This document shows positions 2,667 through 37,896 of a stretch of DNA of 37,896 nucleotides, one piece after another. The notes beneath the pieces are model-generated. The model had not been told where the DNA came from. It did no database searches and saw only the letters and a list, made by a program, of their open reading frames with translations. The position numbers and the translations under genes are program-made. Numbering within the stretch: position 1 is the stretch's first letter; each line of letters begins with the position of its first letter. The stretch is taken from positions 1 through 37,896 of IMG/VR virus record IMGVR_UViG_3300049215_000050, one strand, 5' to 3'. This DNA comes from a virus.

Positions 2667-3013
2667 AGGAGCTGGTCGTCGGGCTGATCAAGGAGGGCGT
2701 CCAGATTCCCCTGCTTGCAAGAGCAAGTGGCATCCCCGAGGACGACCTGTGGGCACTCGGCATCCAAGACGAGTCCCAGGCGCTCCCCGAAGCCGCCCTC
2801 TCCCTTGCCTGGATGGCGATCGAGAAGGGCAAGGAGATCCTCCGCTCGGGGACTCAAGCCAATCAGCTTCGTCTGGTGGCCACGATCTTCAACCACGTCA
2901 TGCGCTCCTACAAGGGAGAATCCCCGAAAGCGTTCCAGGATCTTCAGTCCTACATCGGCAAAGTGTTGAGCGGTGAGGACATCGCTGTCGATGACGAACC
3001 TGAACTCGATTAG
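2657..3013 (+). CDS. Putative terminase small subunit (HTH-containing)
   Basis: 118-aa ORF directly upstream of and overlapping terL. N-terminal HTH-like LIKEGVQIPLLARASGIPEDDLWAL. Called by position. Confidence 0.45.
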   Translation: MEVEELVVGLIKEGVQIPLLARASGIPEDDLWALGIQDESQALPEAALSLAWMAIEKGKEILRSGTQANQLRLVATIFNHVMRSYKGESPKAFQDLQSYIGKVLSGEDIAVDDEPELD

Positions 3014-4666: not shown

Positions 4667-4972
4667 ATGCCGACCTACCAGTACCGCTGCGAGAAGTGCC
4701 GGGTGCTGTTCCACGCGGACACCCGAACGGTGAGCGAGTGCCCCATCGGCCACCCCCAGGTGAAGCGGAACTACTCGTTCACCTTCGGGCTCGGGGTGAA
4801 AGAGCACTGGAACGGCTCTGTCGGAAAGTACGTTAGTAACGAACGACATTTGCGGGACGAACTGTCGCGAGCTTCCGACGAGCACTCGGAGAAGACCGGA
4901 ACGGAGCACCGCTACGTCATGGCCGACGTCGGGGAGATGCGTCAGCAGTTCGGGGTGAGTGAGGACGCATGA
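4667..4972 (+). CDS. Zinc-ribbon protein with an FmdB-like N-terminal signature
   Basis: Starts MPTYQYRCEKC (MPxYxYxCxxC) with a later ECPIGH. ATG 4667 lies inside ORF 4583..4972, 12 nt after the terL stop. Confidence 0.55.
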   Translation: MPTYQYRCEKCRVLFHADTRTVSECPIGHPQVKRNYSFTFGLGVKEHWNGSVGKYVSNERHLRDELSRASDEHSEKTGTEHRYVMADVGEMRQQFGVSEDA

Positions 4973-6795
4973 GCGTCACCGAATATCCCCCCACCGACAC
5001 CGACCAGGATCTGCTCTCCACCGATTCGCTGGCGACTCTCGCCAAGTGCAAGCAGCTCTACCAGACGGCCCGTAAGGCGAAGGCCAATCTGCTCTCGCGC
5101 TGGCGCAGGAACTTTTTGCTTCTCAACAACCAGATGTGGTCCGACTTCCGCATGGCCTGGATGCCGAGTCCGTCCGATTCGGAGATCATGCCCATCATGG
5201 CCAACCTGATCGGGTGGATGACCGATCAGTCGGTCGCCTACACGGTGAACGCGGCCACGCAGCCGAACACCCCGTGGTACGAGTACCTGTCGCAGCTGGC
5301 CGACGATCTGGAAGCGATCCTCGAGTCCAACTGGAAGGTGCTCAACTGGCAGATGAAGGTCACGCGTTCGATGTGGGACGCGGGACTGTACGGGGCCGGC
5401 ATCCTGAAAGCGGTGTGGGACCAGGCACTCGACAACGGACTCGGGAACGTCGATCTGGTGGACGTGGATCCGTGGAACTTCTATCCCGATCCCATGGCCA
5501 GAAACGAGTACGACGGCCAGTACTACATCGAAGTCAGACGCCTCGCCTTCGACACCATCGAGCGCAAGTTCCCCGACCGGGCACAACGTCTTCTCGACGA
5601 CCTCACGTTCTACTCGGAAGGCGATCTCGATTCGGAATCCCGGCCGTCGAACACCGAGAAGTCGGGATCGCAGTACCCGATGTCGTTCTCCTCGGGATAC
5701 CAGGGCGGATCGCCGTCCATGGGACTCCCCGGCCAGTCTCGCATCAAGGCCCCGCGCCCCGAAGGCATCCTCGTCTTCGAGTGTTGGATGCGCGAGAACC
5801 GGGAGACCGAGATTCCCGATCCGGATTTTGACGGCGAGGGAGAGGCTCCGAAGATCACCGTCATGGCCGAGGACTGGCGGGTGGTCATCTGGTCGTGCAA
5901 CACCATCCTCATGGACGCCTGGGCGTCCGATCTGTGGGAGGGGGCGACACATCCCTATGGACGATTCGTCTTCGAGGACACCGGAGAGTTCTGGCCTACC
6001 CCCCTTGTCACCCACCTGGCTCCTTGCCAGATCGCCATCAACCGACTTCTCGCCGCGCTTCAGCAATCAGCCGAGCTCACCGGAAACCCGATCTTCTTGG
6101 AACCTGACCAGAGTGGCATCAGCCAGACACTGCTGATCAACCGCCCCGGCCAGCGCCTCAAGACCAACACCCGAGGGGGACAAGCCCCTCCGCAGTGGCT
6201 GAGCCCTCCCCCCATGTCCTCCGATGTCATGGGACTCATCCGCTTCTACATCGAGCGCATGGAGAACATCTCGGGACTCTCGACCACTTCCAAGGGAAAG
6301 CCGCCTGCGGCGAGAACCCCCGAAGCGGTGGTGTCGAACGTCCAGGAGTCGGGCTTCGTCCGAGTCCGGTCAGGACTCAGGAACATGGAACGCACCCTTC
6401 GGAGGCTGTCTGAGATCCTGGTGCAGCTCGTCATCGAGAACTTCACCACCCCGAGAACGGTGTCGATCATCGGTCAGGAAGGCGAGCAGTCGGCGGTGAC
6501 GCTCAGAGCACGGCACTTCATCGACGCCGTGAACAACGAGTACGCTCCGTTCAAGTACAGCCTCATCGTGAACGCCGGCTCCGACGTCCCGACGTCGAGA
6601 CAAGCCCGAGCCACCGAGGCGCAGAACCTGTTCGTGCTGAAGGCCATCGACCGCAAGGCTCTCCTCGAATCGGTGCGTTTCCCCCACTGGCAGGCCATCG
6701 ACCAGCGAATGCAACAGGCCGAGGCGGCAGCCGCTCAGGCGCAGTTGGAGAACCCCGATTCCCGAGCCAGGACTCGCCGTTCCCCCAAGCCGTAG
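4969..6795 (+). CDS. Portal protein
   Basis: 608-aa ORF, ATGA-coupled, located after terL and before scaffold/capsid. Called from size, synteny and general resemblance; no single diagnostic motif. Confidence 0.7.
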   Translation: MSVTEYPPTDTDQDLLSTDSLATLAKCKQLYQTARKAKANLLSRWRRNFLLLNNQMWSDFRMAWMPSPSDSEIMPIMANLIGWMTDQSVAYTVNAATQPNTPWYEYLSQLADDLEAILESNWKVLNWQMKVTRSMWDAGLYGAGILKAVWDQALDNGLGNVDLVDVDPWNFYPDPMARNEYDGQYYIEVRRLAFDTIERKFPDRAQRLLDDLTFYSEGDLDSESRPSNTEKSGSQYPMSFSSGYQGGSPSMGLPGQSRIKAPRPEGILVFECWMRENRETEIPDPDFDGEGEAPKITVMAEDWRVVIWSCNTILMDAWASDLWEGATHPYGRFVFEDTGEFWPTPLVTHLAPCQIAINRLLAALQQSAELTGNPIFLEPDQSGISQTLLINRPGQRLKTNTRGGQAPPQWLSPPPMSSDVMGLIRFYIERMENISGLSTTSKGKPPAARTPEAVVSNVQESGFVRVRSGLRNMERTLRRLSEILVQLVIENFTTPRTVSIIGQEGEQSAVTLRARHFIDAVNNEYAPFKYSLIVNAGSDVPTSRQARATEAQNLFVLKAIDRKALLESVRFPHWQAIDQRMQQAEAAAAQAQLENPDSRARTRRSPKP

Positions 6796-6864: not shown

Positions 6865-7074
6865 ATGCCATACGGATCGACACCAGAGCAGGACGACGGG
6901 GACCTCGACCAGCCGCGCATCATCGGTCAGGTCACCGGCCCGAAATCCATGTCGGAGTACTCCCGAGACTTCGGGCTCGACGTGGACCCGCAGTTCGAGT
7001 GCGACAACATGGGCCGGCGAAACGGCTACGCGCTCCCGAAGAACGTTCCGTCGGTGGGGGTCCACGGTCGATAG
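6865..7074 (+). CDS. Hypothetical protein (69 aa)
   Basis: Very high GC3 in this frame, unlike the overlapping 6807..7106 frame. Confidence 0.55.
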   Translation: MPYGSTPEQDDGDLDQPRIIGQVTGPKSMSEYSRDFGLDVDPQFECDNMGRRNGYALPKNVPSVGVHGR

Positions 7075-7150
7075 ATCGCATACACATGCGAGTCAACGGC
7101 GTGTAACACGTCGGTTGATCTCCCTTCAATCCGGAGGAGGTGATCCTGAA

Positions 7151-7189
7151 ATGGCACGTCGCAAGGGTCGTCACAGCAAGCGGGGCTGA
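7151..7189 (+). CDS. Candidate 12-aa basic micro-ORF (MARRKGRHSKRG) behind an extended Shine-Dalgarno
   Basis: GGAGGAGGTGATCC (7133-7146) contains GGAGGTGATCC, complementary to the conserved bacterial 16S 3' end. ATG follows 4 nt after it (10 nt after the GGAGG core), and two small hairpins follow the ORF. Confidence 0.3.
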   Translation: MARRKGRHSKRG

Positions 7190-7234
7190 GCCCCCACAGA
7201 GGCGAAAGCCTCACCGCTACCAAGGAGAAGCAAC

Positions 7235-7393
7235 ATGGCCAACGAAGGTGTCTCCAGCTCGAACGCCACCGCCGCACGCCGGGGAGGCAACGTCTCCATC
7301 ATCCGTCAGGGGCAGACCTCGGGTTACCTCGGGAACGACCCCTACGTGAAGGAAGGCGGGCAGGCGTCGAAGGTCCAGGACCTGAAGCCCTAA
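7235..7393 (+). CDS. Hypothetical small protein (52 aa), not in the ORF track
   Basis: AAGGAGAA RBS lies 5 nt upstream of ATG 7235. GC3 is high, and the TAA stop abuts the ATG of the next gene. Confidence 0.6.
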   Translation: MANEGVSSSNATAARRGGNVSIIRQGQTSGYLGNDPYVKEGGQASKVQDLKP

Positions 7394-8599: not shown

Positions 8600-9562
8600 A
8601 TGGCCGTGCCTGTGGGTACCAATGTTGTCACGTCGATTTCCAGACGGTTCATCCTGAAGGACATCGCCGACAACATCTACAACTCGAATCCCCTGTTCTT
8701 CCGCCTGAACCGCATGGGGAAGAAGGTCGTCCAGGGCGGCTACCAGATCGAGCTCCCGGTCATGTACGCCCGGTTCGCAGCCGGCGGGTGGTACCAGGGC
8801 TACGACGCGCTCAACATCTCCCCGTCCGACACCGTGAAGAACGCGGCGTTCGACTGGAAGCAGGCGTATGTGCCTGTTACCGTGGACGGTCTCACGCTCA
8901 TCAAGGTGGATTCGCCGGAAGCCATCGCCAATTTCCTCTCCTTCTACTTCGCCCAGGCGGAGATGGAACTGGCTGAGGTCATCGGTTCGGCGCTGTGGGC
9001 CACGTCGGTCATCTCCAACCAGCCCGACTCGCTCCTCGCCGCCATCGACAACGGCACGGTGGCTGCCACCTACGGCGGGCTCACCCGAGCCTCCAACTCG
9101 TTCTGGAACGCCCAGTACGACTCGTCGTCCACGACGCCTTCGTTCGCCAACCTCCAGACGAACTTCGGCAACGCCACCTTCGGTGGACGGCACCCGACGA
9201 TCCTCATCACCGACCAGCACGTCTACAACGTGTACCTGGGGAACTTCACCTCCACGACCTACTTCGAGCGCGGCCCGGCCGGCTACGACGAGGTGCTGGC
9301 CCAGGGTGGGTGGACCAACGCCCTGTTCAACGGCATCCCCATCGTGGTGGACTCCCACGTCCCTCTCAACGGCTCGGCACACCGGCTGTTCGGGATCAAC
9401 GAGAACTACGCCTATCTGGTGGTCGCCCAGGGCGTGGACTTCAAGCTGGAGGACTTCCAGACGCCGGTCAACCAGGACGCCATGGTGTCGAAGATCTTCT
9501 GGACCGGCGACCTCTGCTTCAACAACGTCCAGACCAGCTTCCAGATGACGAACATCACCTGA
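8600..9562 (+). CDS. Major capsid protein (HK97-fold, T7-like size)
   Basis: 320 aa with a strong TAAGGAG RBS, positioned after the scaffold. The N-terminal pattern FILKDIADNIYNSNPLFFRL...GGYQIELPVMY is typical of podovirus-type coat proteins. Confidence 0.75.
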   Translation: MAVPVGTNVVTSISRRFILKDIADNIYNSNPLFFRLNRMGKKVVQGGYQIELPVMYARFAAGGWYQGYDALNISPSDTVKNAAFDWKQAYVPVTVDGLTLIKVDSPEAIANFLSFYFAQAEMELAEVIGSALWATSVISNQPDSLLAAIDNGTVAATYGGLTRASNSFWNAQYDSSSTTPSFANLQTNFGNATFGGRHPTILITDQHVYNVYLGNFTSTTYFERGPAGYDEVLAQGGWTNALFNGIPIVVDSHVPLNGSAHRLFGINENYAYLVVAQGVDFKLEDFQTPVNQDAMVSKIFWTGDLCFNNVQTSFQMTNIT

Positions 9563-23711: not shown

Positions 23712-24212
23712 ATGGCTACGAAACCGAAAACGCCGAAGGCGACCACTCCCGCGGCTCCGCAGCCTGATGTTTCCCAGACGACCCTCAACCAGCTTCTCGC
23801 TCCCTTCATGTCGTCGCTCCAGGGGGATGCGAAGTCGGCCACCACCACGCAGAACCCGTCGCTGGCGCAGATGTTCGGCAACCTGAACCCGTCCTACCAG
23901 TCGGCCATCGCTCCGTACATGAGCCAGTACAACGCGAATGTCCAGTCCTTGCCGGCGCTCATCCAGGGATCGGTGCAGGACGTAGGCAAAGCGGCGATGC
24001 TGTCGGATCTGCTGAACGCGCTTCGCTACCAGTTCGTCTACGGGGGACAGAACCCGAGCCAGGGCATCGGGCAGTTCTCGGGCGTGCTCAAGTACCTGCT
24101 CGGAGAGAACGCGCCGTCCTCGGGTTCCACGTCATCGACGGGTCAGATCCCGCTCAACCTCGGCCCCATCATCGACCAGAGCAGTGGCGGTAACAAGACC
24201 CCGAGCTTCTGA
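23712..24212 (+). CDS. Hypothetical (internal virion protein candidate, 166 aa)
   Basis: High GC3, coupled to the 1328-aa gene. Confidence 0.55.
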   Translation: MATKPKTPKATTPAAPQPDVSQTTLNQLLAPFMSSLQGDAKSATTTQNPSLAQMFGNLNPSYQSAIAPYMSQYNANVQSLPALIQGSVQDVGKAAMLSDLLNALRYQFVYGGQNPSQGIGQFSGVLKYLLGENAPSSGSTSSTGQIPLNLGPIIDQSSGGNKTPSF

Positions 24213-27200
24213 TGGCTACCAAGACCTCGGCCCAGGACTTCACGAAGAAGTGGAGCACGATCGCCGGGCAGTTCGGCAGCCAGGTTCCCTACCCGGTGCT
24301 CAATCAGGTCTACCAGCTGGACCGCCAGCATCTTCAGTCCCAGGGCTACGACTATTCCCAGACCGAGCTCGAGAACATGATCGCCTCGGCCGCATCGGGG
24401 AAGTCGATCACCGCGCCACCGGACCAGGGTGGGGGGAACTTCTTCTCCAATGTCCTCGGAGACGTGAAGTCGATCGGCACCGGGCTCATGGGCCTGGTGA
24501 AGACAGGACTCGGGGACATCGAGCATCCCTCGCACATCGGAGCCCAGGTCTCCACCATCTGGCGCGACCCCAACGCCGTGCTCCAGAACGTCGTTCCCGG
24601 CCTGGCCGACATCGAGACGGTGCTGAAGGCGGATCCCCATCTGACCGGATCAAAGGGTGCTGAGAAGCTCCTTCAGCACCCGGTGACGTCCGTCCTCGAC
24701 GTTCTGCCTATCGGCAAAGCCCTCGGGGCCGTTGCCGGCAAGCTAGGCCGAGTCGGGCTGGATGAAGCAGCGCGGTCAGCTGCCGAGGAAGCGAGCCGTT
24801 ACAAGCCCTCCGACTACTCGCCCGAAGCGAGAGCAGCCCGAGCATCGGCCAAGACCCAGGTGTCGAGAGCGAGACAACTGGCCATCGCTTCGGAGAAGGG
24901 ACTGCCTCATCTCCTGCGGGAATCAGTGCTCGGCGGCGGCGGAAATCTGGCTCTGGAAGCCCCGGCCGGATTCGATTTCGAGACGGGCAACTCCATCTAC
25001 TCGGACCAGTGGATCGGAAACCGGGGGGAACGGCTGGCCAACTTCCTGAACCGTCGTTCTGGGGGACGGATCGGGTCGATCACCGCCGACGAGAACCGCC
25101 GGCTGGCCCCGGTCATCGGCCAGTTCCTCCACGCCCGGGCCGAGATCGCCAACAAGCGCAACCCCGATTCCATGGTGAATCTGTGGTGGAAGCATGGACT
25201 CTCGGAAAAGCGGGGTACTCCACCCTCACCGGAGGTCTACGACCTCTACCAGAAGCTGTGGAACGAGGGTGCCACCAAAGATGAAGTTCTGGCGCAAGCG
25301 GGTCCGGAACTCGGGCCGAAGATCAACGCCCTTTTCGATGACCTCCAGGCCCGCTACACCGACAACCTCAACGCGGATCTCGCTGGTGGGAAGGTGGCCC
25401 AGGTCATCGACCCTCGTGACGGTCGTGTCGAAACAAGAGCTACCCGAGGACGCGACAACACCGTCGTCCGAGCGTCGAAGCTCTTCGAGGGACGAAGGTC
25501 CAAGGCCCAGGGCGTCCTAGCCGACTTCAATGCGACGCACGGCACCGACATCCCCCTTGACCCATCGACCGCCCGACAGGCGATGGTGGATCAGATCGTT
25601 TCTCGCCTGTCGGGGGCGGCGGGGCCGTTCGTAGGGCTCGACACCGAGAACCTCGACGCCCTGCGTCAGGCGGTGGAGATCGGCAAACGCACCCAGGCGG
25701 CAGATCTGCGCTTCGCCAAGAAGGTGCTCGGTCCTTCGGGATCGCTCAACCGATTCCTCGAAGCCATCAAAACCGGGGATCTGGAGACAGCCCGCAAGAT
25801 CCTCGGCACCGAAGGGGGGTTGCTGTCGAACCTCACTCGCAAGTCCTTCCATGCCAACCCCTTGCTGCGCCAGATCGGATTGTATCTGAGGTCGATCCGT
25901 CCTGTGCTCGACGGGTTCAAGAAGGTCGAATCGGAGTTGAAGAAGTTCGACCGATCGAAGACCACCCTCACCTCGCTCATCGACCGGAACCCTTCAGCTG
26001 AGTACCAGAAAGCCTTCAACGAGATCGTGAAGGACCAGGCGCTTCTGTGGTTGTCCCATCACCGGGAGGACATCGACCCCGAAGCCCTGACGTCGCTCTA
26101 CGACGACATCGGGGACCTCACCTATCGGGGGAAGAAGTTCTCCGAGATCATCGGGCCGTACAACTTCAGACGCATCAAGGATGCGGCCATCGACGAGCTG
26201 GTGTCGATCCGAAACGAAGGCTTCCGGCCCCGCTTCGCCTACTCGACGGCTCCGGAGAACATGGAGTCGATCCTGTCGAAGCACCCGAACCTGGAACGGA
26301 TCTCCGCCCCCCAGCCGGGGTTCACCCGAGCCGAGGTCGTCCCGTCGAGACTCTACGACCCGGTGATCGGGCTCATGGCCGATGCCGAGCGCAGACTGGA
26401 GCACGACTTCGCCACCGAGTACTGGTTCGGGAAGAACGGCGTGCTGTCGGTACATGGCATGGGATTCGACGACGCCAAGTCGATTGCCATGCAGTCGATG
26501 AAGATCCGTGAGGGATCGTTCCTCTCCAAGCACGCGTCGCTCGACCGAGAGATGAAGGAGAAGTTCGAGAAGGTCGATCCCCGCTCGCTGTTCTCCTCAG
26601 CCAAAGCGGTAGCTACTGGGGTGTCGTTCAACGCAGATGTCTATGTCCCGAGAGACATCATGGCTGCGGTCAGAGCCAACTTCGACGCCATGAAGCCGAC
26701 GAACAACCCGCTCATCCGTGGATACGCCCGAGCCACGGGGATCTTCAAGTACAGCCTTCTCAACTTCTCCCCCCGCTACCAGATGCACATCGCCGGGGGC
26801 GGGTCGATGCTCCTTCTCCTCAGAGGGAACATCTGGGAGATCGTTCCCAACGTCTCGGCCGCTCTCGGCATGGCCGTCCAAGACACCGCCAGCCTCCAGG
26901 AGTGGGCGACGCGGGGGCATGTGAGACGGACGGTCATCCAGCCGCTTCTCGACCACTTCACCCAGAAAGCCGAGCGGCTTGGTCAGCATGGCATCCCCGG
27001 TCAGATCGCCCACTCCCTACCGGAAGCCGATACCCAGGGACTCCAGCAGGCATTCGCCTACGCCTCGGGGCACAAGATCGGAAAGTGGCTGGACGAGGCC
27101 ATGTCCAAGCGGGGTCTGTCGGCCGGACTCGAGGTGGCCAACTTCAACGCCAACATGCTCCGTGCGCTCGCCTATCTGTCGAAGGGAGGGGGAGAGGAAG

Positions 27201-28198
27201 GCATCGCCTTCGCCAACAAGGTCTTCGCTGATATGAACAGCTTGACCCCGGCCGAGCGATCCTTGATCAAGTACGTCATCCCCTTCTACGGCTGGACGAG
27301 GCATATCCTGAAGTTCGTCAGCACGTACCCGGCCGACCACCCGTACAGAGCGATGGTCTTGGCCAACGCTACCCAGCAGTACTGGGAGGAGTGGGACTCG
27401 GGGTTCCCGCAGAAGCTTATCTACCTGTTCTCCTTGGGAACACCCGACGCCCAAGGGAACGTGAAAGTGGACGACCTGCGCCAGCTCGATCCGCTCAGGA
27501 ACGTGGTGGACATCTTCACCATGGCAGGAGCGATGTCGGCGCTCAACCCGGCGTTTCAGACCATGCTCCAGGGATTCGGCATCGACCCGGTGACTGCCCA
27601 GCCCGACAACATCTACTCGACCTTCACCTACGACTCGTTCTCCGGAGCCTTGCAGGCAAACCGTCCGAGTCCGTTGCAGCTAGCGGCGAACGGGGTGTTC
27701 AATTTCATCCCCGAGTCGAGCGTGCTCGATCACTTCCTCCAGCTGTCCTCCTACACCCGGTATCTCGCGCAGAACGAGCCCGCTCTATACCGCCAGCAGC
27801 TCTACCAGGCGCTGAACGTCCCGTGGGTCCCCTACAACGTGAACGTCTACCAGACCATCGCGCGCACCGAGGCACATCAGTACACGGTGGCCAAGGATCT
27901 GGTGCAGACGACATCTGGGACAGGGGCGATGTACTCGGCCGACCCCAACTCTGCGGATTGGGGGGCGCTGTTCAAGTACGCCTATGTTCCGTACCAGAGC
28001 TGGATGGTTCAGCCTGCCGCACTTCGCTACTGGGTGTTCATGCAGGCCCCGGTGAACGACGGCAGCCATGTCTACACGGGCTACTTGCAGTACCGACAGT
28101 CCGGAGGAACGCTTCCGCCTGCATCGGTGATCGTTCCGCCGAGCTCACCGAGAAGCGGCGCAAATCCCTATCAGCCGCCCTTCGCTCAGGCAGGATAG
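24212..28198 (+). CDS. Very large virion protein (1328 aa), internal core/ejection protein candidate
   Basis: Single uninterrupted high-GC3 ORF. Its size and position, after small internal-protein-like genes, resemble T7 gp16-class proteins. No catalytic motif recognised. Confidence 0.6.
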   Translation: MATKTSAQDFTKKWSTIAGQFGSQVPYPVLNQVYQLDRQHLQSQGYDYSQTELENMIASAASGKSITAPPDQGGGNFFSNVLGDVKSIGTGLMGLVKTGLGDIEHPSHIGAQVSTIWRDPNAVLQNVVPGLADIETVLKADPHLTGSKGAEKLLQHPVTSVLDVLPIGKALGAVAGKLGRVGLDEAARSAAEEASRYKPSDYSPEARAARASAKTQVSRARQLAIASEKGLPHLLRESVLGGGGNLALEAPAGFDFETGNSIYSDQWIGNRGERLANFLNRRSGGRIGSITADENRRLAPVIGQFLHARAEIANKRNPDSMVNLWWKHGLSEKRGTPPSPEVYDLYQKLWNEGATKDEVLAQAGPELGPKINALFDDLQARYTDNLNADLAGGKVAQVIDPRDGRVETRATRGRDNTVVRASKLFEGRRSKAQGVLADFNATHGTDIPLDPSTARQAMVDQIVSRLSGAAGPFVGLDTENLDALRQAVEIGKRTQAADLRFAKKVLGPSGSLNRFLEAIKTGDLETARKILGTEGGLLSNLTRKSFHANPLLRQIGLYLRSIRPVLDGFKKVESELKKFDRSKTTLTSLIDRNPSAEYQKAFNEIVKDQALLWLSHHREDIDPEALTSLYDDIGDLTYRGKKFSEIIGPYNFRRIKDAAIDELVSIRNEGFRPRFAYSTAPENMESILSKHPNLERISAPQPGFTRAEVVPSRLYDPVIGLMADAERRLEHDFATEYWFGKNGVLSVHGMGFDDAKSIAMQSMKIREGSFLSKHASLDREMKEKFEKVDPRSLFSSAKAVATGVSFNADVYVPRDIMAAVRANFDAMKPTNNPLIRGYARATGIFKYSLLNFSPRYQMHIAGGGSMLLLLRGNIWEIVPNVSAALGMAVQDTASLQEWATRGHVRRTVIQPLLDHFTQKAERLGQHGIPGQIAHSLPEADTQGLQQAFAYASGHKIGKWLDEAMSKRGLSAGLEVANFNANMLRALAYLSKGGGEEGIAFANKVFADMNSLTPAERSLIKYVIPFYGWTRHILKFVSTYPADHPYRAMVLANATQQYWEEWDSGFPQKLIYLFSLGTPDAQGNVKVDDLRQLDPLRNVVDIFTMAGAMSALNPAFQTMLQGFGIDPVTAQPDNIYSTFTYDSFSGALQANRPSPLQLAANGVFNFIPESSVLDHFLQLSSYTRYLAQNEPALYRQQLYQALNVPWVPYNVNVYQTIARTEAHQYTVAKDLVQTTSGTGAMYSADPNSADWGALFKYAYVPYQSWMVQPAALRYWVFMQAPVNDGSHVYTGYLQYRQSGGTLPPASVIVPPSSPRSGANPYQPPFAQAG

Positions 28199-29042: not shown

Positions 29043-29723
29043 GTGGACAAGCACCCGAACGACGAACTGCGAAAGCCGTTCCCGGCATCGGCTGTCGGGA
29101 AGCTCCCGAGGAAGACGAAGGACGGCCGCACGATCTACCTCGACTACGTGGGGCACGCTGCGGTCACCGACCGGCTCTTGAGCGTCGATCCCGAGTGGGA
29201 CTGGGAGCCGCTCGCCTACGATGACAGCGGACTTCCGCTGTTCGACCGCAACGGACAGGGCCAGGTCGTCGGTTTGTGGATCGAGCTGACCGTGAACGAC
29301 GTGACCCGCTTGGGCTACGGGTCCGTGACCGCCAGCTCGTTCGACGCCGAGAAGCAGCTGATCGGGGACGCCATCCGTAACGCTGCCATGCGCTTCGGGG
29401 TGGCGCTCGATCTGTGGACGAAGGCCGACCTCGAGTCGGAGGCCGAGGAAGAGCCGCTTCCCATCCTGGCCACCCAGCACCTCCGGGCGGACCTGTCCTC
29501 ACGGATCTCGGAGCTGTCGAAGGAGTCCCAGGAAGAGCTGAAGCGGGCCTGGCGGGAGCAAGGTCTTTCACCCCTCAAGAACCTCCTCGAGCGGGACCAG
29601 GAGGCAGCCGAGGCACTGCTGCGGAGATTCGAGGACCGGGCTGATGCGCTATCGGGCCAGAAGAGCCCCCCAGAAGCCCCCTTCGATGGACTGCGGGACC
29701 GTCTGAGCGGAGAAGCGAAATGA
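29043..29723 (+). CDS. Rad52/Sak-type single-strand annealing protein
   Basis: LRKPFPASAVGKLPRK...IYLDYVGHAAVTDRLLSVDPEWDWE and GYGS...DAEKQLIGDAIRNAAMRFGVALDLW match the Rad52-family SSAP pattern. Confidence 0.65.
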   Translation: MDKHPNDELRKPFPASAVGKLPRKTKDGRTIYLDYVGHAAVTDRLLSVDPEWDWEPLAYDDSGLPLFDRNGQGQVVGLWIELTVNDVTRLGYGSVTASSFDAEKQLIGDAIRNAAMRFGVALDLWTKADLESEAEEEPLPILATQHLRADLSSRISELSKESQEELKRAWREQGLSPLKNLLERDQEAAEALLRRFEDRADALSGQKSPPEAPFDGLRDRLSGEAK

Positions 29724-29992
29724 GGGGCCTCATCCGGGGCTGGCACTTCCAGCGCGAGCAGTGGTGGCAGGACTTCCAACAGTCGCTTCACGTTCGCAGG
29801 ATCACAACCCCCTTCGACTACCAGGCGGGGTGGGCCTGCCGGGAGTGCGGCTCCACCCCGGTGGCCCTGCGGCGGTGCCGGGAGTGCTTCGGGCACGTCT
29901 GTCGCAACTGCGAGGTCGTCCACGCCCTCGAGCACTGGGGGTTCTGCACGGAGCTCGATTGGAACCCGTGGCAGGAGCTGGTCGGTGGATAG
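29720..29992 (+). CDS. Cys-rich zinc-finger protein (90 aa)
   Basis: CRECGSTPVALRRCRECFGHVCRNC (three CxxC pairs). ATGA-coupled. Confidence 0.55.
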   Translation: MRGLIRGWHFQREQWWQDFQQSLHVRRITTPFDYQAGWACRECGSTPVALRRCRECFGHVCRNCEVVHALEHWGFCTELDWNPWQELVGG

Positions 29993-30551
29993 GCCCGGCC
30001 CCGATTGGTTCTCCCAGGCCCGCCCCTACTTCGAGCGCCACCTGCTCCCTCTGGCGGACCGGGATCTCCACTGCCTTCAGCTCGGGGTCTACCTCGGGGA
30101 CGCCTCTCTGTGGCTGATGGAACATCTCCCGAAAGCCCAACTGACCGATGTGGACACCTGGGAGGGATCCGACGAGACCGAGCACGACGAGCTCGACTGG
30201 GCCGGCGTCGAGACCTACTACGACCAGGTGACCTGGGACTACGCAAGACGTATCCGAAAGTTCGTGGGCACCACGGAGACCTTCTTCGACTACCTGGAGT
30301 TCGGGCTGTTCGACTTCATCTACGTGGATGCCGACCACCGGGCTCCCGAGGTCCTGACCGATGCCGTGCGGTCGTGGCGGCATCTGAAGGTCGGGGGGAT
30401 CCTGGCCTTCGACGACTACACCTGGCAGGCGCACTCGGGGATCCTGCTCGACGCGCCGAAGGTGGGGATCGACGCCTTCTGCGCCACCTTCTTGGACCGC
30501 CTCGAAGTCATGGAGACCGGAGCCCAGGTGTGGGTGAGAAAGACCCGCTGA
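29985..30551 (+). CDS. Class I SAM-dependent methyltransferase (Methyltransf_24-like)
   Basis: Motif I-like CLQLGVYLGDASLWL; FDFIYVDADH; LKVGGILAFDDY. Confidence 0.7.
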   Translation: MDRPGPDWFSQARPYFERHLLPLADRDLHCLQLGVYLGDASLWLMEHLPKAQLTDVDTWEGSDETEHDELDWAGVETYYDQVTWDYARRIRKFVGTTETFFDYLEFGLFDFIYVDADHRAPEVLTDAVRSWRHLKVGGILAFDDYTWQAHSGILLDAPKVGIDAFCATFLDRLEVMETGAQVWVRKTR

Positions 30552-30922: not shown

Positions 30923-31420
30923 ATGTCCACGAAACTCTCACCGCTGTTCTCCTGGCGCGGTGCCATCTGCGACAGCGGTCTTCCCCCGATCACGCGACTT
31001 GTCGCGTTCACGCTCTCGCTCCACATGAACGAGCGTGGCGGAAGCTGCTATCCCGGCATCGCTCTACTGGCTCGGGAGTCCGGACTGGCCGAGTCCACCG
31101 TGCGTGAGCACATCCACAAGCTGATCGACGCCGGGTGGCTCAAACGGTCGGGTCGAGTGCGCGGTGGACGGAGCGTTTCCCCTGCCTACACAGCCTGCCT
31201 GCCAAACCCACCGGGAGCCGGTGGGTTTTACGCCAAAGTCACCGGCTCGGTACCCGAAACCCACCGGATGAGCGACGAAAACCCACCGGGAGCCGGCGGT
31301 GAGGACGTTAGGAGGACGTTTGAGGACGCGGCGGCTAACGCCAAATCTGAGGACGCCACCCGGTTCATCCCTGACTGGAATGCTCTCCACGGCCTCATCA
31401 AGCGGCCACCCAGTGCTTGA
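30923..31420 (+). CDS. Winged-helix (HTH_36-like) protein, replication initiator/organizer candidate
   Basis: LPPITRLVAFTLSLHMNERGGSCYPGIALLARESGLAESTVREHIHKLIDAGWLKR. GGAGGTGAG RBS. Iteron-like repeats lie inside its 3' half. Confidence 0.6.
   Translation: MSTKLSPLFSWRGAICDSGLPPITRLVAFTLSLHMNERGGSCYPGIALLARESGLAESTVREHIHKLIDAGWLKRSGRVRGGRSVSPAYTACLPNPPGAGGFYAKVTGSVPETHRMSDENPPGAGGEDVRRTFEDAAANAKSEDATRFIPDWNALHGLIKRPPSA
31204..31345. repeat. Iteron cluster: AAACCCACCGG x4 (one inverted, forming a 25-bp palindrome) and GAGGACG x4
   Basis: AAACCCACCGG at 31204, 31257 and 31279, with an inverted copy at 31218-31228. GAGGACG at 31301, 31312, 31322 and 31339, the first three spaced 10-11 bp apart. 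Confidence 0.75.
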
Positions 31421-31445
31421 CACCCTACTCCACTGTACCTACACT
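31417..31445 (+). promoter_or_regulatory. Rightward sigma70-like promoter (TTGACA-N17-TACACT)
   Basis: Consensus -35 at 31417-31422, 17-nt spacer, TACACT at 31440-31445, in a locally AT-richer gap. GAGGAGG RBS and ATG 31483 lie downstream. Confidence 0.6.
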
Positions 31446-31482
31446 TGTCCATACAGACGGAGGGTGCGAGGAGGTGGACGAC

Positions 31483-31659
31483 ATGGACCGCAACGACCCG
31501 ACCGACCGCTACTGGCCGCTCAAGACCGGAGCCGCGACCATCATCGACTTCCCCGGCACCACCGAGCGCGTGCTTCCGAAGGAAGAGGCGCTCGAAAAGG
31601 TGCGGGAGCTGAAGCGCAAGCTCTACCACCAGGAGGGATCCGATGAGCGATCTGCCTGA
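31483..31659 (+). CDS. Hypothetical protein (58 aa from ATG 31483)
   Basis: GAGGAGG RBS 6 nt upstream. High GC3. The upstream part of ORF 31417..31659 overlaps the promoter. Confidence 0.5.
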   Translation: MDRNDPTDRYWPLKTGAATIIDFPGTTERVLPKEEALEKVRELKRKLYHQEGSDERSA

Positions 31660-31843
31660 GGAGGAATCCGATCTCGTCCTCGAGTTGCTCCGGACCTTCG
31701 ACAAGATGCTCGGTGAGCAGAAGGCAGCCGCCTCGTGCTTCGAGCGGTGGTCGGCCCAGTGGTGCTACCACCAGGGCCAGGTCGATCTGCTCGACGCGCT
31801 CTCGGAATCGCTGTCGGCATCGGCGCTCAAGTGGAACCTGTGA
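31643..31843 (+). CDS. Hypothetical acidic protein (66 aa)
   Basis: ATG start, high GC3, overlaps its neighbours. Confidence 0.5.
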   Translation: MSDLPEEESDLVLELLRTFDKMLGEQKAAASCFERWSAQWCYHQGQVDLLDALSESLSASALKWNL

Positions 31844-31847
31844 CCCG

Positions 31848-32015
31848 ATGTCTCTACTGCGGGGTGCGTGGCCACGACCAACGCCGATGCCCGTGGCTTA
31901 CCGGATCTGTGGTCTGTGCGCCGGCCCTCACTTGGAACGCAACTGCCCGAGAGGACGAAAGGGCCTGTGGGAGTGGATGGTGATGCACACGCGAAAGATC
32001 CATCATGGGGCGTGA
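31848..32015 (+). CDS. CCHC zinc-knuckle protein (55 aa); the alternative overlapping frame 31840..31983 also encodes a knuckle
   Basis: This frame: CGLCAGPHLERNC (CX2CX3HX4C), with its stop overlapping the next ATG. The other frame: CLYCGVRGHDQRRC (CX2CX4HX4C), starting at a GTGA-coupled GTG 31840. Confidence 0.4.
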   Translation: MSLLRGAWPRPTPMPVAYRICGLCAGPHLERNCPRGRKGLWEWMVMHTRKIHHGA

Positions 32016-32340
32016 CCTGACACCGCTACAGCGGGACTTGAAGGCGAAACGGCGAAAGACGCTCAAGGCGATGTCGGATCGACGCCAGGGCGAACTCGCC
32101 TCTCGACGCGAGATTCGTGAACGCGTGTGGGCTCGCGACGGACATAGGTGCAGATTCCCGCATCACGAAGTACCGGACCTGCCATGCTTCGGCGGGCTCA
32201 CCGTTCACCACCTACTCAAAGCATCGCAGGGAGGCGAGTACACCGATGAAAACCTCATCACCATCTGCGCGGTCGGGAACTGCTGGATCGAGGACCACCC
32301 CCGACGAGCAACCGAACTCGGACTTGTCCACTTCCGATAA
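32005..32340 (+). CDS. HNH endonuclease (HNH_5-like)
   Basis: VWARDGHRCRF...CFGGLTVHHLLKASQGGEYTDENLITICAVGNCWIEDHP. Confidence 0.8.
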   Translation: MGRDLTPLQRDLKAKRRKTLKAMSDRRQGELASRREIRERVWARDGHRCRFPHHEVPDLPCFGGLTVHHLLKASQGGEYTDENLITICAVGNCWIEDHPRRATELGLVHFR

Positions 32341-32418
32341 CAGGTTCGATCGGCTCCATGACTTGTACGGGCCAGCTATCTACTACCCGGACTTCGACCC
32401 GCATACTTGGATCTACGA

Positions 32419-32490
32419 ATGACCATCTTCGCCTACTTCCTCATCGCTCTCGTCCTGGGGGCCTGGTGGTGGAGCGATCGTCGTGACTGA
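32419..32490 (+). CDS. Candidate 23-aa transmembrane micro-protein
   Basis: MTIFAYFLIALVLGAWWWSDRRD. Its stop overlaps the GTG 32483 of the next gene. Confidence 0.3.
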   Translation: MTIFAYFLIALVLGAWWWSDRRD

Positions 32491-32767
32491 ACCGCTCTCT
32501 CAGGAAGAACTGGCCCGCTTTCGGGCGGTGGTCCATACAAAGACAGAGGAACTCCTCCTCGCAACGCTCGACAACCGTAACGCTGAGATCGCAGCCCTGC
32601 GTGAGCGCCTGGAAGCGGCCGAAGCGGTGTGCGAAGCGACGAACCGGGTGCGGGTGGCGCACACCCGTGGCTGGAACAAAGGGGTTGAGCTGATCGCCCT
32701 GTTTCTGGCCCATGACTCCTGGCGCTCCCTGGCCCCCCAAGAGAGAAGAAGCGAAGGAGAGAAGTGA
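32483..32767 (+). CDS. Hypothetical helical protein (94 aa) ending in the shared tail [12 protein letters not shown]
   Basis: High GC3. Its last 41 nt are identical to the 3' end of the next gene. Confidence 0.6.
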   Translation: MTEPLSQEELARFRAVVHTKTEELLLATLDNRNAEIAALRERLEAAEAVCEATNRVRVAHTRGWNKGVELIALFLAHDSWRSLAPQERRSEGEK

Positions 32768-32769
32768 CC
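32729..32769. repeat. 41-bp perfect direct repeat, copy 1 (gene-junction cassette)
   Basis: ctggccccccaagagagaagaagcgaaggagagaagtgacc, identical to 33457-33497. Contains a GAAGGAGAG RBS, TGA stop and GTG start. Confidence 0.95.
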
Positions 32770-33495
32770 ACGACAACGAAGATCCCCGCCTGGCTGAAAC
32801 TCGACACCGGCTCGCACGAAGACTCCTGCGGCGTGTGCGTCGAGGAGTGCCTGGCGCTCTTGCTCGGCCAGGAGAAGACCGACAACCCCGACCGGGTGCA
32901 TCCCATCATCCGGTCGGTCGCCATTAACGCCAACGACACCGAGCCAGACCCGAAGAAGCGTCGGCTGCTTGCCCGAACGCTCGCCTGCCAGGTGGACACC
33001 GACGACGTGAGTGAGGAAGTGACAAGGCGATTGGCTGCCTTCGTGTGCCGCTACAGCGCCGAGCGGCTGCCCGAGGGAACCGACGAGCGAGTGGGGGCCG
33101 CCCTGCTGGCTGCTGCGGCGTGCCTGGAAGACCCGAGCGCCGGGCGTGCGAGAGCTGCGGAGGCTGCGAGAGCTGCGGAGGCTGCGTGGGCTACGAGGGC
33201 TGCGGAGGCTGCGGGGGCTGCGGGGGCTGCGGAGGCTGCGTGGGCTACGAGGGCTGCGGGGGCTGCGTGGGCTACGGAGGCAGCGGAGGCTGCGTGGGCT
33301 GCGAGGGCTGCGTGGGCTGCGAGGGCTGCGTGGGCTGCGTGGGCTGCGTTCTGCGCCGACCTGCTTACCGCCCTCATCGCGGAGTTCGACCGTCTCACTG
33401 GCCGCACCGAGTGTCACAAGTTCACGAAGGCGGACTGGGACCGCGTGAAAGCGGCGCTGGCCCCCCAAGAGAGAAGAAGCGAAGGAGAGAAGTGA
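32764..33495 (+). CDS. Alanine-repeat protein A (243 aa): Cys-containing N-domain plus (Ala-Ala-X)n array
   Basis: N-domain [18 protein letters not shown]..., then [31 protein letters not shown]...[16 protein letters not shown]-coupled. Confidence 0.7.
33154..33351. repeat. 22 tandem 9-bp units GCTGCGNNG (in-frame coding microsatellite)
   Basis: Units counted directly: gctgcggag, gctgcgaga, gctgcggag, gctgcgtgg, gctacgagg ... gctgcgttc. Confidence 0.95.
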
Positions 33496-33497
33496 CC
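33457..33497. repeat. 41-bp perfect direct repeat, copy 2
   Basis: Identical to 32729-32769. Confidence 0.95.
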
Positions 33498-34346
33498 GAC
33501 TTCACTGAAATGCTCCGAGCCCCGCTGCACAAGGGGGCGCATGATGACCCGTCCAAGGGTGCCTGCGTTATGGAACGTGTGGCGATCCTCTGGGCGCTCC
33601 ATGCCGGTGAGGACGTGAAGGCCGTGTTCAGCGATCTGCCCGCCTGCACAAACGAGGTCGTGGCTCGCTGCGCCCAGCAGGTGAACGACCGGCTCGATGA
33701 CAGCGAGCGCCAACGGCTCAACGCGCTCATCCCCCGCCTGCTCAGAGCACGACGCACCGACAGCGATCTGCGGGTGAATGTACGTCTGGCGGTATGGGCG
33801 GCTCGCCGGGTGCTGCACCTGGTGCGCGAACAGGACCGCGAGGTCTGCGAGAAGGCCATCGAGGCAGCGGAGAACTGGCTGGAAACGGGGGTGTGGGACG
33901 CCACCTACGCCAACGCCGCCAACGCCACCGCCTACGCCGCCGCCAACGCCGCCAACGCCACCGCCTACGCCGCCGCCAACGCCGCCCACGCAGCCCTCGC
34001 AGCCCACGCAGCCCTCGCTGCCTCCGTAGCCCACGCAGCCCCCGCAGCCCCCGCAGCCTCCGCAGCCCTCGTAGCCCACGCAGCCTCCGCAGCTCTCGCA
34101 GCCTCCGCAGCCACCGCCGCCAACGCCGCCGCCGCCGCCTACGCCGCCAACGCCGCCTACGCCGATCCAGTGGCCGAGCTGGACGCGTTCCTCGACGCCT
34201 GGGAGGAGGCGGTCACCAAGGAGGGCGAGGACCTCTACATCCCAAGAGAGTGGGAGGACGAGGCGCTGGCTTTCGTCGCTGAGTTCATAGCCCCAACCCC
34301 CACAGACACCATCGAGCGCATGGAAGCGGAGGACTACGAGAAGTGA
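33492..34346 (+). CDS. Alanine-repeat protein B (284 aa), paralog of protein A
   Basis: N-domain [23 protein letters not shown]...[22 protein letters not shown]..., then [11 protein letters not shown] x2 and [47 protein letters not shown] 33492 lies inside the spurious ORF 33045..34346. Confidence 0.7.
33909..33986. repeat. 33-bp tandem duplication (about 2.4 copies) encoding [11 protein letters not shown]
   Basis: gccaacgccgccaacgccaccgcctacgccgcc at 33909-33941 and 33942-33974, followed by a partial third copy. Confidence 0.9.
33986..34111. repeat. Inverted copy of the 33154-33333 9-bp array (14 units)
   Basis: The reverse complement of 34040-34111 equals 33154-33225 exactly (72 bp). The remaining 54 bp match after unit-multiple gaps of 36 and 18 bp. 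Confidence 0.9.
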
Positions 34347-34732
34347 CCCCTGACAACCCCATAGAAGCCGCAAGCCCACTGACGTTTCAGGCGGTTCACG
34401 CCGCCAACACGGCCCGCTGCCGCCGTTGGCACGAGGACTCCACCGCCTGGACGGGAGCTGATTGGGCGACGGCTCTCGGCGGCGAGTGCGGCGAGGCACT
34501 CAACATCGTCAAGAAGATGCGACGGATCGAGTGTGGGATGGACCCAGGCCCCGACGACCCGCCGTTCCCTGCGCTGGGTTCGATGCTGGCAAAGGAGTTG
34601 GCTGACGTGTTTCTGTACCTCGACCTGCTCGCCTGGCACTACGGCATCGACTTGCCCCACGCCATCGTCTCGAAGTTCAACGAGGTAAGCGCACGCCAGG
34701 GTTTCCCCGAGGAGTTGCAACATGAACGCTGA
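34343..34732 (+). CDS. mazG: MazG-like nucleotide pyrophosphohydrolase
   Basis: [26 protein letters not shown] and [20 protein letters not shown] match the MazG/NTP-PPase helix motifs. Confidence 0.75.
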
Positions 34733-34811
34733 CCCCATAGAAGCCGCAAGCGGCATCGAGCGGATCGAGAAGTTGGAGGCCGTGGCTCGGGCGGCTGCGG
34801 CGCGGGGGTAA
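34722..34811 (+). CDS. 29-aa ORF sharing its N-terminus (DPIEAAS) with MazG; possible duplication remnant
   Basis: ATG 34722. The 19-bp ccccatagaagccgcaagc at 34733-34751 repeats 34357-34375. Confidence 0.3.
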   Translation: MNADPIEAASGIERIEKLEAVARAAAARG

Positions 34812-34815
34812 CTGA

Positions 34816-35166
34816 ATGACGCTGACCCTTATCCTCATCTACGCAATCGTCGCGGTCGCCATCCCCGTGACCATGACGGTTCTCGATGGCCCCGACCCCG
34901 ACCCAGCGGTCTTTGTGTTCGGGTGCTTCTTCAGCATCTTCTGGCCGATCTATGCGCCGTTCGTCTTGCTGTGGCTGTGTGTCAAGGGCCTGTCCGCTGC
35001 CGTAGCCGACAAGCCTGGGCCGCTTCACGGGTGGTTCCCGACTGACGACCCTGACGAGTACGTGCGGGCGGGCGAGCGGTGGCGGGCCGAAATGCACGCC
35101 CGCCAGATGGATGACCCGGGCGACTGGGGGGGTGAAAGTGAGTTTCAACATGACAACGAGTCCTGA
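34816..35166 (+). CDS. Membrane protein (116 aa, two transmembrane segments)
   Basis: LILIYAIVAVAIPVTMTVL and VFVFGCFFSIFWPIYAPFVLLWLCV. Confidence 0.6.
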   Translation: MTLTLILIYAIVAVAIPVTMTVLDGPDPDPAVFVFGCFFSIFWPIYAPFVLLWLCVKGLSAAVADKPGPLHGWFPTDDPDEYVRAGERWRAEMHARQMDDPGDWGGESEFQHDNES

Positions 35167-35395
35167 CGGAAGGTTGGTCAAGCTGGTGGCCGAAAGAAAC
35201 GGCCAGCCGCCCACGCCGACCATCGTGCAGGAGAACCCGGCCTACGCCAAGTGGGTCGAGCGGGCGGCGCTGATCCTGTGCGACGAGGCGGGCGAGCTTG
35301 GCGAGATTCCGACGCCCTGCTTCACACACATTCATGAGGCCAGCCGCATCTCGGCGGCGCTCCGTATGACCGTCATGAACAGCGCCGGGAGGTAA
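35111..35395 (+). CDS. Hypothetical protein (94 aa; alternative start ATG 35150)
   Basis: High GC3. Overlaps the end of the previous gene. Confidence 0.5.
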   Translation: MTRATGGVKVSFNMTTSPDGRLVKLVAERNGQPPTPTIVQENPAYAKWVERAALILCDEAGELGEIPTPCFTHIHEASRISAALRMTVMNSAGR

Positions 35396-35400
35396 CAGCG

Positions 35401-35748
35401 ATGCCCAAAAAAGTGACGATTGAGCGCGGGAAACCGCAGGAGGAAGTGCATATGAGTGAGGAGGTACAACGGCCCACCATCGGTCGGATCGTTCACTACC
35501 GCCAGGAGTACGACGTGGTGGCTGCCATCGTCACCATGACGCCCGAGGAGTGGTCGCCCGGCTACCGGGACAACGACGGCGAGTGGCACCCGACGACAAA
35601 CGTGCCGCAGCCCAAGGCCGGGACGGTCCACCTGCACCTGTTCCCGCCATTCGGCGCTGGCTGGACAGCCGAGCAGTGCGACGTGCGGGATGTGGCCCAC
35701 GGTGACGAGCCCGGCTCATGGTCGTGGGCCACCGAAGATCGGGGGTGA
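35401..35748 (+). CDS. Hypothetical protein (115 aa; alternative start ATG 35452)
   Basis: High GC3. No motif recognised. Confidence 0.5.
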   Translation: MPKKVTIERGKPQEEVHMSEEVQRPTIGRIVHYRQEYDVVAAIVTMTPEEWSPGYRDNDGEWHPTTNVPQPKAGTVHLHLFPPFGAGWTAEQCDVRDVAHGDEPGSWSWATEDRG

Positions 35749-35754
35749 CGCCTG

Positions 35755-35952
35755 ATGGCCGGTAAATGGTGGGTCTGCACCGATGCGCTCGCCCGAGGTG
35801 GTGCGAAAGTGATCGGCCCGTTTGAGTCGCAAGAGTTGGCTCTGGACGTGCGGCATTACGTCGAGCACACGCCCTTCCGTGAGCGACCGCCCGGCGTGGC
35901 ACGGCAACAGGCCACGTTTTGGGTGGACGAGGAAGTTGGGGGTGAGTCGTGA
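35755..35952 (+). CDS. Hypothetical protein (65 aa)
   Basis: High GC3, GTGA-coupled to the next gene. Confidence 0.5.
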   Translation: MAGKWWVCTDALARGGAKVIGPFESQELALDVRHYVEHTPFRERPPGVARQQATFWVDEEVGGES

Positions 35953-36239
35953 CCATCCGCAAGGAGCAGGTGACCGCCTTTTTGCAGGGGGAGGGCTTCG
36001 CTGTAGCCGATGCCCAAGCGCAAGCCATCACAGAACGCCTGAACGACGAGCGTAAGGGGACGCCGGACGACTTCTCCGAACTGAACGCCGTGCTCGACCA
36101 TCTCGCGTCGTTCGGAGAGCGGGACGCCATGAAGATCGACTGTCCGATCTGTACTGCAGCCAGAAAGTACGGCTTGGACAACCTGAAGGTGCGGGCGTTC
36201 CTGCGCCGACGCCCACGATACCGCCCGACAAGGGGCTGA
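35949..36239 (+). CDS. Hypothetical protein (96 aa)
   Basis: High GC3. CPIC motif near the C-terminus and a basic tail. Confidence 0.5.
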   Translation: MTIRKEQVTAFLQGEGFAVADAQAQAITERLNDERKGTPDDFSELNAVLDHLASFGERDAMKIDCPICTAARKYGLDNLKVRAFLRRRPRYRPTRG

Positions 36240-37591: not shown

Positions 37592-37896
37592 AGGCTGCGG
37601 CGAGCCTTCTGCCGGCCGCCTGGAAGCGTTCCAGCTCTTGTTCGGTGTACTCGCCGTCGTAGCGGGCGCGAACTTCCCACGTTCCGTCGTGTCCTGTGTC
37701 GTAGTGGCGAATGGTCCACTTTTCGGACGGACAGAGCTTGCGTAGTCGAGCTTTCACGTCCCGTCGGATGCGTTCGGCCCGAGCCTCATCCTCTGCGAGC
37801 ACGATGCGAAACTCATTCCCTTGTGCTTCACGCACGGGCTCTAGGATCGTCTCCCACTCAACAGGCGGTCGTTTGGGCTGTCTCGCCCGTGGCAGC
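37569..37896 (-). CDS. 3' part of the junction-spanning hypothetical gene (123 aa on the circle)
   Basis: The frame is open from 37569 to the window end and continues through 128-171. It converges on and overlaps 37421..37591 by 23 nt. Confidence 0.6.
   Translation of the reverse strand, partial: LPRARQPKRPPVEWETILEPVREAQGNEFRIVLAEDEARAERIRRDVKARLRKLCPSEKWTIRHYDTGHDGTWEVRARYDGEYTEQELERFQAAGRRLAAASRTSRSD
37770..37896. repeat. Terminal direct repeat, copy 2
   Basis: Identical to 1-127. Confidence 0.95.

Follow-up and report, generated by a model that had tools for sequence, protein, structure and literature searches.

Two adjacent genes of a virus (IMG/VR record IMGVR_UViG_3300049215_000050, of which positions 1 to 37,896 are the whole stretch analysed here, hereafter the window) encode alanine-rich repeat proteins, and the second of them, gene B, carries within its repeat array a 126-bp block that is the reverse complement of the array of the first, gene A. 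It seems probable that this block arose by a recent, lineage-specific, inverted and non-reciprocal copy between two paralogous, slippage-prone and quasi-palindromic alanine arrays. The genes and the parts of their arrays are as follows.

32764-33495, + strand: gene A (243 aa, from the list of open reading frames, ORFs), with a Cys/His-containing N-domain, an Ala-Ala-X array and a short C-terminal domain
33154-33351, + strand: donor array in gene A, 22 units of 9 bp of the GCTGCGNNG type, a unit common to the A-type arrays of other phages
33154-33231, no strand assigned: left arm of the 78-bp perfect inverted repeat, exact match
33492-34346, + strand: gene B (284 aa), with a paralogous N-domain, an X-Ala-Ala array and a short C-terminal domain
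33897-33985, + strand: native left part of the gene B array, NAC/ACC-GCC-GCC units (Y/N/T), the unit type of other B-type arrays
33986-34111, + strand: inverted block in gene B, 14 units NNC-GCA-GCC, read as [H/L/S/P]-A/V-A; reverse complement of A-type units
34034-34111, no strand assigned: right arm of the 78-bp perfect inverted repeat, exact match
34112-34166, + strand: native right part of the gene B array, ACC/AAC/TAC-GCC-GCC units; the junction with the block is crossed by two Logan contigs

The array of gene A is made of 22 in-frame 9-bp units (18 of GCTGCGNNG, 3 of GCTACGNNG and 1 of GCAGCGGAG) and is translated as Ala-Ala-X, with X being E, R, W or G. Gene B, the start of which overlaps the stop of gene A (GTGA), has an X-A-A array spanning 33897-34166, in which units of the form NAC/ACC-GCC-GCC flank the block on both sides. 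A first-pass annotation made from the sequence alone had described the 22 units and their inverted copy at 33986-34111, and both were recovered when the arrays were re-derived; it had also recognized a perfect inverted identity between the two genes but put its length at 72 bp, whereas the exact inverted repeat is 78 bp long (33154-33231 against 34034-34111), with 802 bp separating the arms. As that annotation had it, the remainder of the block matches once gaps of 36 and 18 bp, both multiples of the unit, are allowed: the whole block is then identical to the reverse complement of the gene A array at 126/126 positions. Block and array are collinear over gene A units 1-8 and 13-18, with the rare markers AGA, ACG-AGG, ACG-GAG and GCA in the same order. 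The two genes had been taken for paralogs, and their N-domains are indeed homologous (hhalign probability 97.9%).

The match is not one that chance would produce, since the longest inverted exact match between A-type and B-type genes of other phages is only 8-16 nt, and in none of 235 IMG/VR viral loci with comparable Ala-Ala-X arrays (2.15 Mb in all) does the unit occur on both strands or the array contain an inverted repeat of at least 30 nt that is exact.

Comparison with related genes points clearly to gene A as the donor and gene B as the recipient, given the unit types of other A-type and B-type arrays, the match of the block to foreign A arrays and its atypical leucine and proline residues. 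The A-type arrays of four other contigs (L002, L014, L016 and L039) are built, as in gene A, from GCT-GCG-NNG units encoding E, R, W or G (also K and Q). GCC-GCC-NNC units are used throughout the B-type arrays of L003, L006, L010, L013_p1, L018 and L019, and predominate in that of L001, which has a short GCT-GCC run as well; NNC-GCA-GCC units, those of the block, are present in none of the seven other B-type genes that were read at the DNA level (0/7). The block matches foreign A arrays over 24-25 nt in the inverted orientation, similar to the 24-26 nt over which gene A matches them directly. Among non-alanine array residues, leucine and proline together account for 21% in gene B, all of them in the block, whereas across 113 other C-type arrays they account for 2.5%. 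Gene A retains the unit and the residues typical of its family, the donor being unchanged. The copying was very recent: no substitution has accumulated in 126 bp, and the only differences are indels of whole units. Of the two causes offered at first for the identity, recent copying or gene conversion is thus favoured, while selection on the nucleotide sequence itself is not, the block being lacking in the seven other B-type genes and in all 235 array loci.

Gene B, block included, is found without a single difference in a second assembly of this phage (ERZ12298644 scaffold_9177_c1, 37,737 bp). Over 15.4 kb the two assemblies (99.8% identical) differ by one single-nucleotide polymorphism (SNP; window position 25164), one single-base indel (around 37130) and one 27-bp indel located in the gene A array.

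33234-33260, + strand: 27-bp (3-unit) segment present in the window and missing from the gene A array of the ERZ12298644 assembly

This indel lies between 16-nt direct repeats, its exact placement being ambiguous, and is a slippage polymorphism; near-identical genomes therefore differ by three units in the gene A array, which bears out the earlier suspicion that the 9-bp array is prone to slippage. Against the shorter array of the second assembly the block is again identical at 126/126 positions, with smaller gaps (9 and 18 bp). As the gaps shrink in this way, the shorter array is probably closer to the donor state, and the extra 27 bp of the window a later slippage duplication. The native left part of the gene B array contains a repeat of its own (33908-33991, a 33-bp unit present 2.5 times with 98% identity), the result of a distinct and recent duplication within the array. 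The gene A array may be compared with contingency loci and with the slippage-prone tandem repeats that lie in frame in genes for surface or host-interaction functions. As is the case for these, copy number here outpaces substitution (a 27-bp indel against 1 SNP in 15 kb) and array length is highly variable across homologs; unlike in contingency loci, the changes come in multiples of the unit, so that no on/off frameshifting is seen.

The design of the arrays offers a route for the copy. The reverse complement of a GCN-GCN-NNS unit, read one base out of register, is N'N'S'-GCN-GCN (that is, NNS'-GCN-GCN), which again encodes X-Ala-Ala, and for this reason Ala-Ala-X arrays lying on the same strand form a built-in imperfect inverted repeat. 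The native arrays of A-type and B-type genes show 59-73% identity in the inverted orientation and 42-54% in the direct one, against a mean of 41% for random segments of the window, and on either side of the block the gene B units agree with A units, in register, at 7/9 positions. Judged from the identity of the native arrays, the inverted complementarity between donor and recipient predates the copy. In this phage lineage a non-reciprocal event copied about 126 bp of the gene A array, inverted and in frame, into the middle of the native array of gene B. The likely route is that replication switched templates from one quasi-palindromic arm to the other; gene conversion between the arms, possibly aided by the single-strand annealing protein of the phage, could have been involved instead.

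29043-29723, + strand: phage single-strand annealing protein (phrog_3290, E = 8.8e-49)

This protein is a candidate for promoting annealing where homology is short or imperfect. The copy recoded the exposed X residues according to the complement rule, GAG becoming TCC (E to S), AGG becoming CTC (R to L), TGG becoming CAC (W to H) and GGG becoming CCC (G to P), and it preserves both the reading frame and the three-residue periodicity. It left the 78-bp perfect inverted repeat behind, with nothing but unit-multiple indels since. The inverted repeat itself is most likely a by-product, presumably neutral or mildly deleterious, rather than a functional device, and the event looks like a one-off accident of replication or recombination in a slippage-prone array, as the block has no counterpart in the seven other B-type genes or the 235 array loci. 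The first-pass annotation had remarked that arrays unrelated at the DNA level in homologs would make this a one-off accident, and the inverted array is conserved in none of the homologous phages.

Template switching is known to homogenize the arms of inverted repeats, also in coding DNA (PMC8604942, PMC8794818, PMC7202029). The present case resembles those described in that an imperfect inverted repeat is perfected by non-reciprocal copying from arm to arm, in that a cluster of apparent multi-nucleotide changes results within coding DNA, and in that a long RNA or DNA stem is formed as a by-product. It differs from them in its dimensions, with a tract of 126 bp, a spacing of 802 bp and two genes involved where the described cases mostly concern tens of bp at one locus; in its arms, which are tandem arrays that owe their complementarity to the symmetry of alanine codons; and in that the copy stays in frame and keeps the periodicity of the protein repeat. 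The view that no described system has this architecture has thus become moot, the DNA event fitting known inverted-repeat homogenization by template switching and the proteins being Imm5-like (see below).

Several points weigh against this account. The spacing of the arms and the length of the tract exceed those of usual quasi-palindrome template switches (tens of bp), and the molecular mechanism, template switch or gene conversion, is one that we infer, template switching and recombination not being separable here. Neutrality is assumed: two assemblies carry the block unchanged, which means that it is tolerated at least and could be under selection. Lastly, the closest homolog of gene B, P0001 in L001, has a short run (6500-6580) rich in S, L and P on NNC-GCT-GCC units, the reverse complement of which is GCA-GCG-NNG. 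This run might be an older, independent insertion of the antisense type, which would hint at recurrence; an A-type gene was not found in the 9 kb available around P0001.

The neighbourhood of the two genes may itself be young. A perfect direct repeat of 41 bp brackets gene A.

32729-32769, + strand: copy 1 of the 41-bp perfect direct repeat, covering the end of the upstream ORF (its last 12 codons), a ribosome-binding site and the GTG start of gene A
33457-33497, + strand: copy 2, covering the end of gene A, a ribosome-binding site and the GTG start of gene B

Copy 2 provides gene A with a C-terminal tail that is seen in no homolog, and the repeat begins with CTGGCC, the native end of A-type genes (…AAL). 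An unequal crossover at this CTGGCC microhomology would have placed gene A upstream of gene B, and gene A could be removed again by recombination between the 41-bp copies. Because the repeat brackets gene A in a manner that fits unequal crossover, the adjacency of the two genes may be recent, in line with the young inverted copy.

Among the other explanations, the one that fares best gives the strand symmetry an adaptive role: by antisense cassette exchange the X residues of one paralog would be recoded in a single step, and selection by a changing host defence or toxin component would retain the variant. The arrays of the family are hypervariable in length and in X residues, paralogs with identical ends and different arrays stand side by side in contig L013 near an Acb5-like gene, the block is intact and in frame in two assemblies, and the run in P0001 is possibly of the antisense type. 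We nevertheless consider this explanation unlikely, as there is a single clear case, with none in the seven other B-type genes read as DNA or in the 235 viral loci that bear arrays, as the family almost never uses proline or leucine at X, and as zero substitutions leave too little time for any visible selection. The block is also the least confident part of the structural model of gene B: the AlphaFold2 (AF2) model is all-helical with a predicted local distance difference test (pLDDT) value of 66, which falls to 29-37 in the block. The broader claim that antisense block exchange is recurrent and selected, diversifying Imm5-like repeat proteins, with the inverted repeat also modulating expression of the gene pair or recombination within it, appears quite unlikely. 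If it were true, host or rival-phage targets would drive the recurrent pasting of reversed array blocks, recoding all exposed X residues.

Very unlikely, too, is a functional RNA duplex, in which the arms would pair in a polycistronic mRNA to form a stem of about 126 bp acting as an RNase III target, a double-stranded RNA decoy or a regulator of gene B. Co-transcription of genes A and B is probable: the two share the GTGA overlap, and the + strand shows nothing resembling a promoter or a terminator between them. Folded in silico, 33100-34180 gives a structure in which the long stem predominates (minimum free energy -685 kcal/mol), as had been anticipated. However, any inverted repeat folds in this way, and the predicted stem is an automatic result of the repeat. 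The proposed double-stranded RNA or RNase III role finds no backing in conservation, the complementarity being absent in all relatives compared. Both arms are translated, so that ribosomes would compete with pairing; indels of 9-36 bp between the arms show no pressure to stay in register; and there is no Rfam match in 31000-36000.

A programmed invertible switch, in which recombination between the arms would flip 33232-34033 and toggle expression of genes A and B, is extremely unlikely. The 78 bp of perfect inverted homology would suffice for homologous recombination, and an annealing protein is present. As had been predicted, a simulated flip truncates protein A to a product ending in ...AAWAALAAA-stop, 178 aa long, but this very outcome speaks against inversion as a function: both conserved C-domains are orphaned, and the N-domain of gene B ends up on the other strand, fused to junk. 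The segment is oriented alike in both full assemblies, the arrangement is confined to this phage lineage, and no recombinase or invertase was matched among the 32 ORFs scanned with Pfam, PHROGs and PADLOC (0/32), a set that does not include every small ORF. Neither the double-stranded RNA nor the switch idea has comparative support.

Finally, the block is almost certainly not an assembly artefact, such as could arise where a de Bruijn graph, by joining each k-mer and its reverse complement in one node, allows chimeric paths: tandem arrays are difficult to assemble and short-k Logan contigs do break inside the block, at 34082, but two such read-derived contigs (runs ERR9963787 and ERR9963788), beginning there 30 nt inside the block, pass its junction into native gene B units with 0 mismatches, the independent assembly with a different gene A array has the same gene B, the block is in frame with gene B's own units on both sides, and the terminal overlap of the window suggests an assembly at k=127, longer than the 78-bp repeat. 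This overlap is a 127-bp terminal direct repeat (window 1-127 and 37770-37896), and it shows the window to be a phage genome of about 37.77 kb that was assembled as a closed circle; with k at 127, the assembly probably spans the exact repeat.

Coming back to the inverted copy between paralogous arrays, the proteins concerned belong to a family of some size. Genes A and B have dozens of metagenomic homologs each, built from an N-domain, an alanine-rich array that varies greatly in length, and a C-domain that is short and conserved; the homologs of gene A are 62-83% identical to it and vary in array length. No near-identical counterpart of the region was found in 50,697 phage records, and neither scans of IMG/VR with single proteins (genes A and B) nor a profile scan of genome contigs for the A/B family returned a match; tblastn of both genes in the same phage records gave one weak match, and alignment-based scans gave only 3 viral and 7 metagenome loci, mostly short. 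In some gene B homologs, P0020, P0028 and P0031 (L007 814-1419), the array is read in another frame, with runs such as PPTPPPP and RRRQRRRRR, and the C-domain is lost; either the frameshifts are real or the arrays were misassembled.

By profile comparison, genes A and B are diverged paralogs within a phage-borne, all-helical, Imm5-like superfamily. Homogeneous 9-bp tandem units encode the central (Ala-Ala-X)n arrays of this family, the length of which shifts rapidly through replication slippage. Imm5 and Imm5_like proteins are putative immunity proteins (Pfam PF14423 and PF21805; Zhang et al. 2012, PMC3482391). No Imm5 or Imm5_like match, and no direct Pfam match at all, was obtained for either protein with hmmscan at E <= 1, and sequence and fold searches of the PDB gave no significant match for either. 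Distant homologs of both families, however, carry Imm5_like (PF21805), Imm5 (PF14423) or DUF6931 (PF22011 among the Pfam ids), and hhalign against an alignment of 15 Imm5-type proteins gave 99.7% and 99.2% for profiles A1 and A2 (99.2% for the gene A set). The resemblance extends to architecture, since both groups are mostly alpha-helical, with alanine-rich repeated helices after a short N-domain, and profiles of both window families align at more than 99% to proteins bearing PF21805 or PF14423. In the all-helical AF2 model of gene A (pLDDT 74) the array folds into a hairpin of two long antiparallel helices (H124-164 and H170-212). Unlike typical Imm5 proteins, those of the window fall short of the Pfam models themselves, and their genes lie in the early or accessory region of a phage, apparently not in a polymorphic-toxin or polyimmunity locus, with no cognate toxin evident: next to them are a gene for an HNH endonuclease, one small ORF and a weakly matching MazG-like ORF, and no toxin domain was recognized among them. 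From the Imm5 relationship (PMC3482391), a binding or immunity-like role may be proposed for these apparently fast-evolving repeat proteins.

The occurrence of two or three tandem paralogs, in the window and in L013, loosely resembles a polyimmunity arrangement. Contig L013, from a phage, carries three paralogs of the family (176-2886 and 2994-3503) with an Acb5-like (PF26761) gene directly after them. Two of these tandem genes have identical N-terminal and C-terminal ends (121 nt exact) and wholly different arrays (GCG-GCT-NNT against GCT-GCT-NNG). As three paralogs with differing arrays occur there, multi-copy, array-variable clusters in accessory regions are typical of the Imm5-like family.

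The GCTGCGNNG unit itself is used by a much wider set of alanine-rich phage proteins, since only 4 of the 80 contigs analysed (L020-L099) among the 85 IMG/VR viral contigs with at least 3.5 such units have an N-domain matching the A or B profile. The viral loci of IMG/VR that carry each unit number 85 for GCTGCG, 30 for GCCGCG and at least 120 for GCGGCG, so that GCTGCG is not uniquely favoured. GCT-GCG is common to the A-type arrays of four phages, although identity at the synonymous sites that flank them is no more than 50-68%; the units within one array are not independent of each other. Selection on GCTGCG at the nucleotide level was considered and is unproven: paralogs use GCT-GCT, GCG-GCT or GCC-GCC, and arrays of GCCGCG or GCGGCG are comparably common.

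Recurrent strand flipping was considered for one further pair, L039 (around 4129-4269; AAX, on GCT-GCG-NNG) and its ortholog L050 (around 7005-7373; XAA, on NNC-GCA-GCC), which share N-domains and C-domains and have constant 7-mers that are exact reverse complements of each other. It was rejected, as the X codons of L050 reverse-complement to Leu or Arg codons and not to the E/R/W/G set; by its codons, the L050 array is a native C-type array and not a simple flip.

We also compared the arrays with VIPR vrRNA arrays, which are non-coding, intergenic arrays of 5-nt YNNGG units with a 3' tail and a paired RAMP protein (bioRxiv 10.64898/2026.04.26.720920). Both are phage-borne tandem repeats that combine a constant motif with a variable dinucleotide (here GGCTGCG, 7 nt, plus NN). 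The present units, in contrast, are 9 nt long and lie in frame inside conserved ORFs; their constant part varies from paralog to paralog (GCC-GCC, GCT-GCT or GCG-GCT), and no Vipr-like gene was seen. A VIPR-like RNA code was rejected on the period, the in-frame coding and the lack of RAMP gene matches nearby.

The remainder of the window contains the following recognizable phage genes.

2973-4655: terminase
4969-6795: portal
8600-9562: major head protein
29985-30551: methyltransferase
30923-31420: replication initiator
32005-32340: HNH endonuclease
34343-34732: MazG-like ORF, sub-threshold match

A long ORF of 1328 aa (24212-28198) has no Pfam, PHROG or PADLOC match and is conserved in the related contig L001 (1318 aa), at the same position upstream of recombination and early genes.

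The inverted block of gene B is an unusually large, in-frame, two-gene form of a known mutational process and not a new system, and no new defence or counter-defence system is revealed by it. Alanine tandem repeats on GCN-GCN-NNS units encode alanine repeats whichever strand is read, and neighbouring arrays of this kind are for that reason latent inverted repeats that replication or recombination can homogenize. A single mutational step can thereby bring about a large in-frame change at every variable residue and introduce a long perfect inverted repeat into a small phage genome. Two assemblies of one phage document that array unit number changes far faster than the genome accumulates substitutions. 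The widespread, uncharacterized Imm5-like repeat family of phage accessory regions would offer candidates for rapidly evolving binding proteins.

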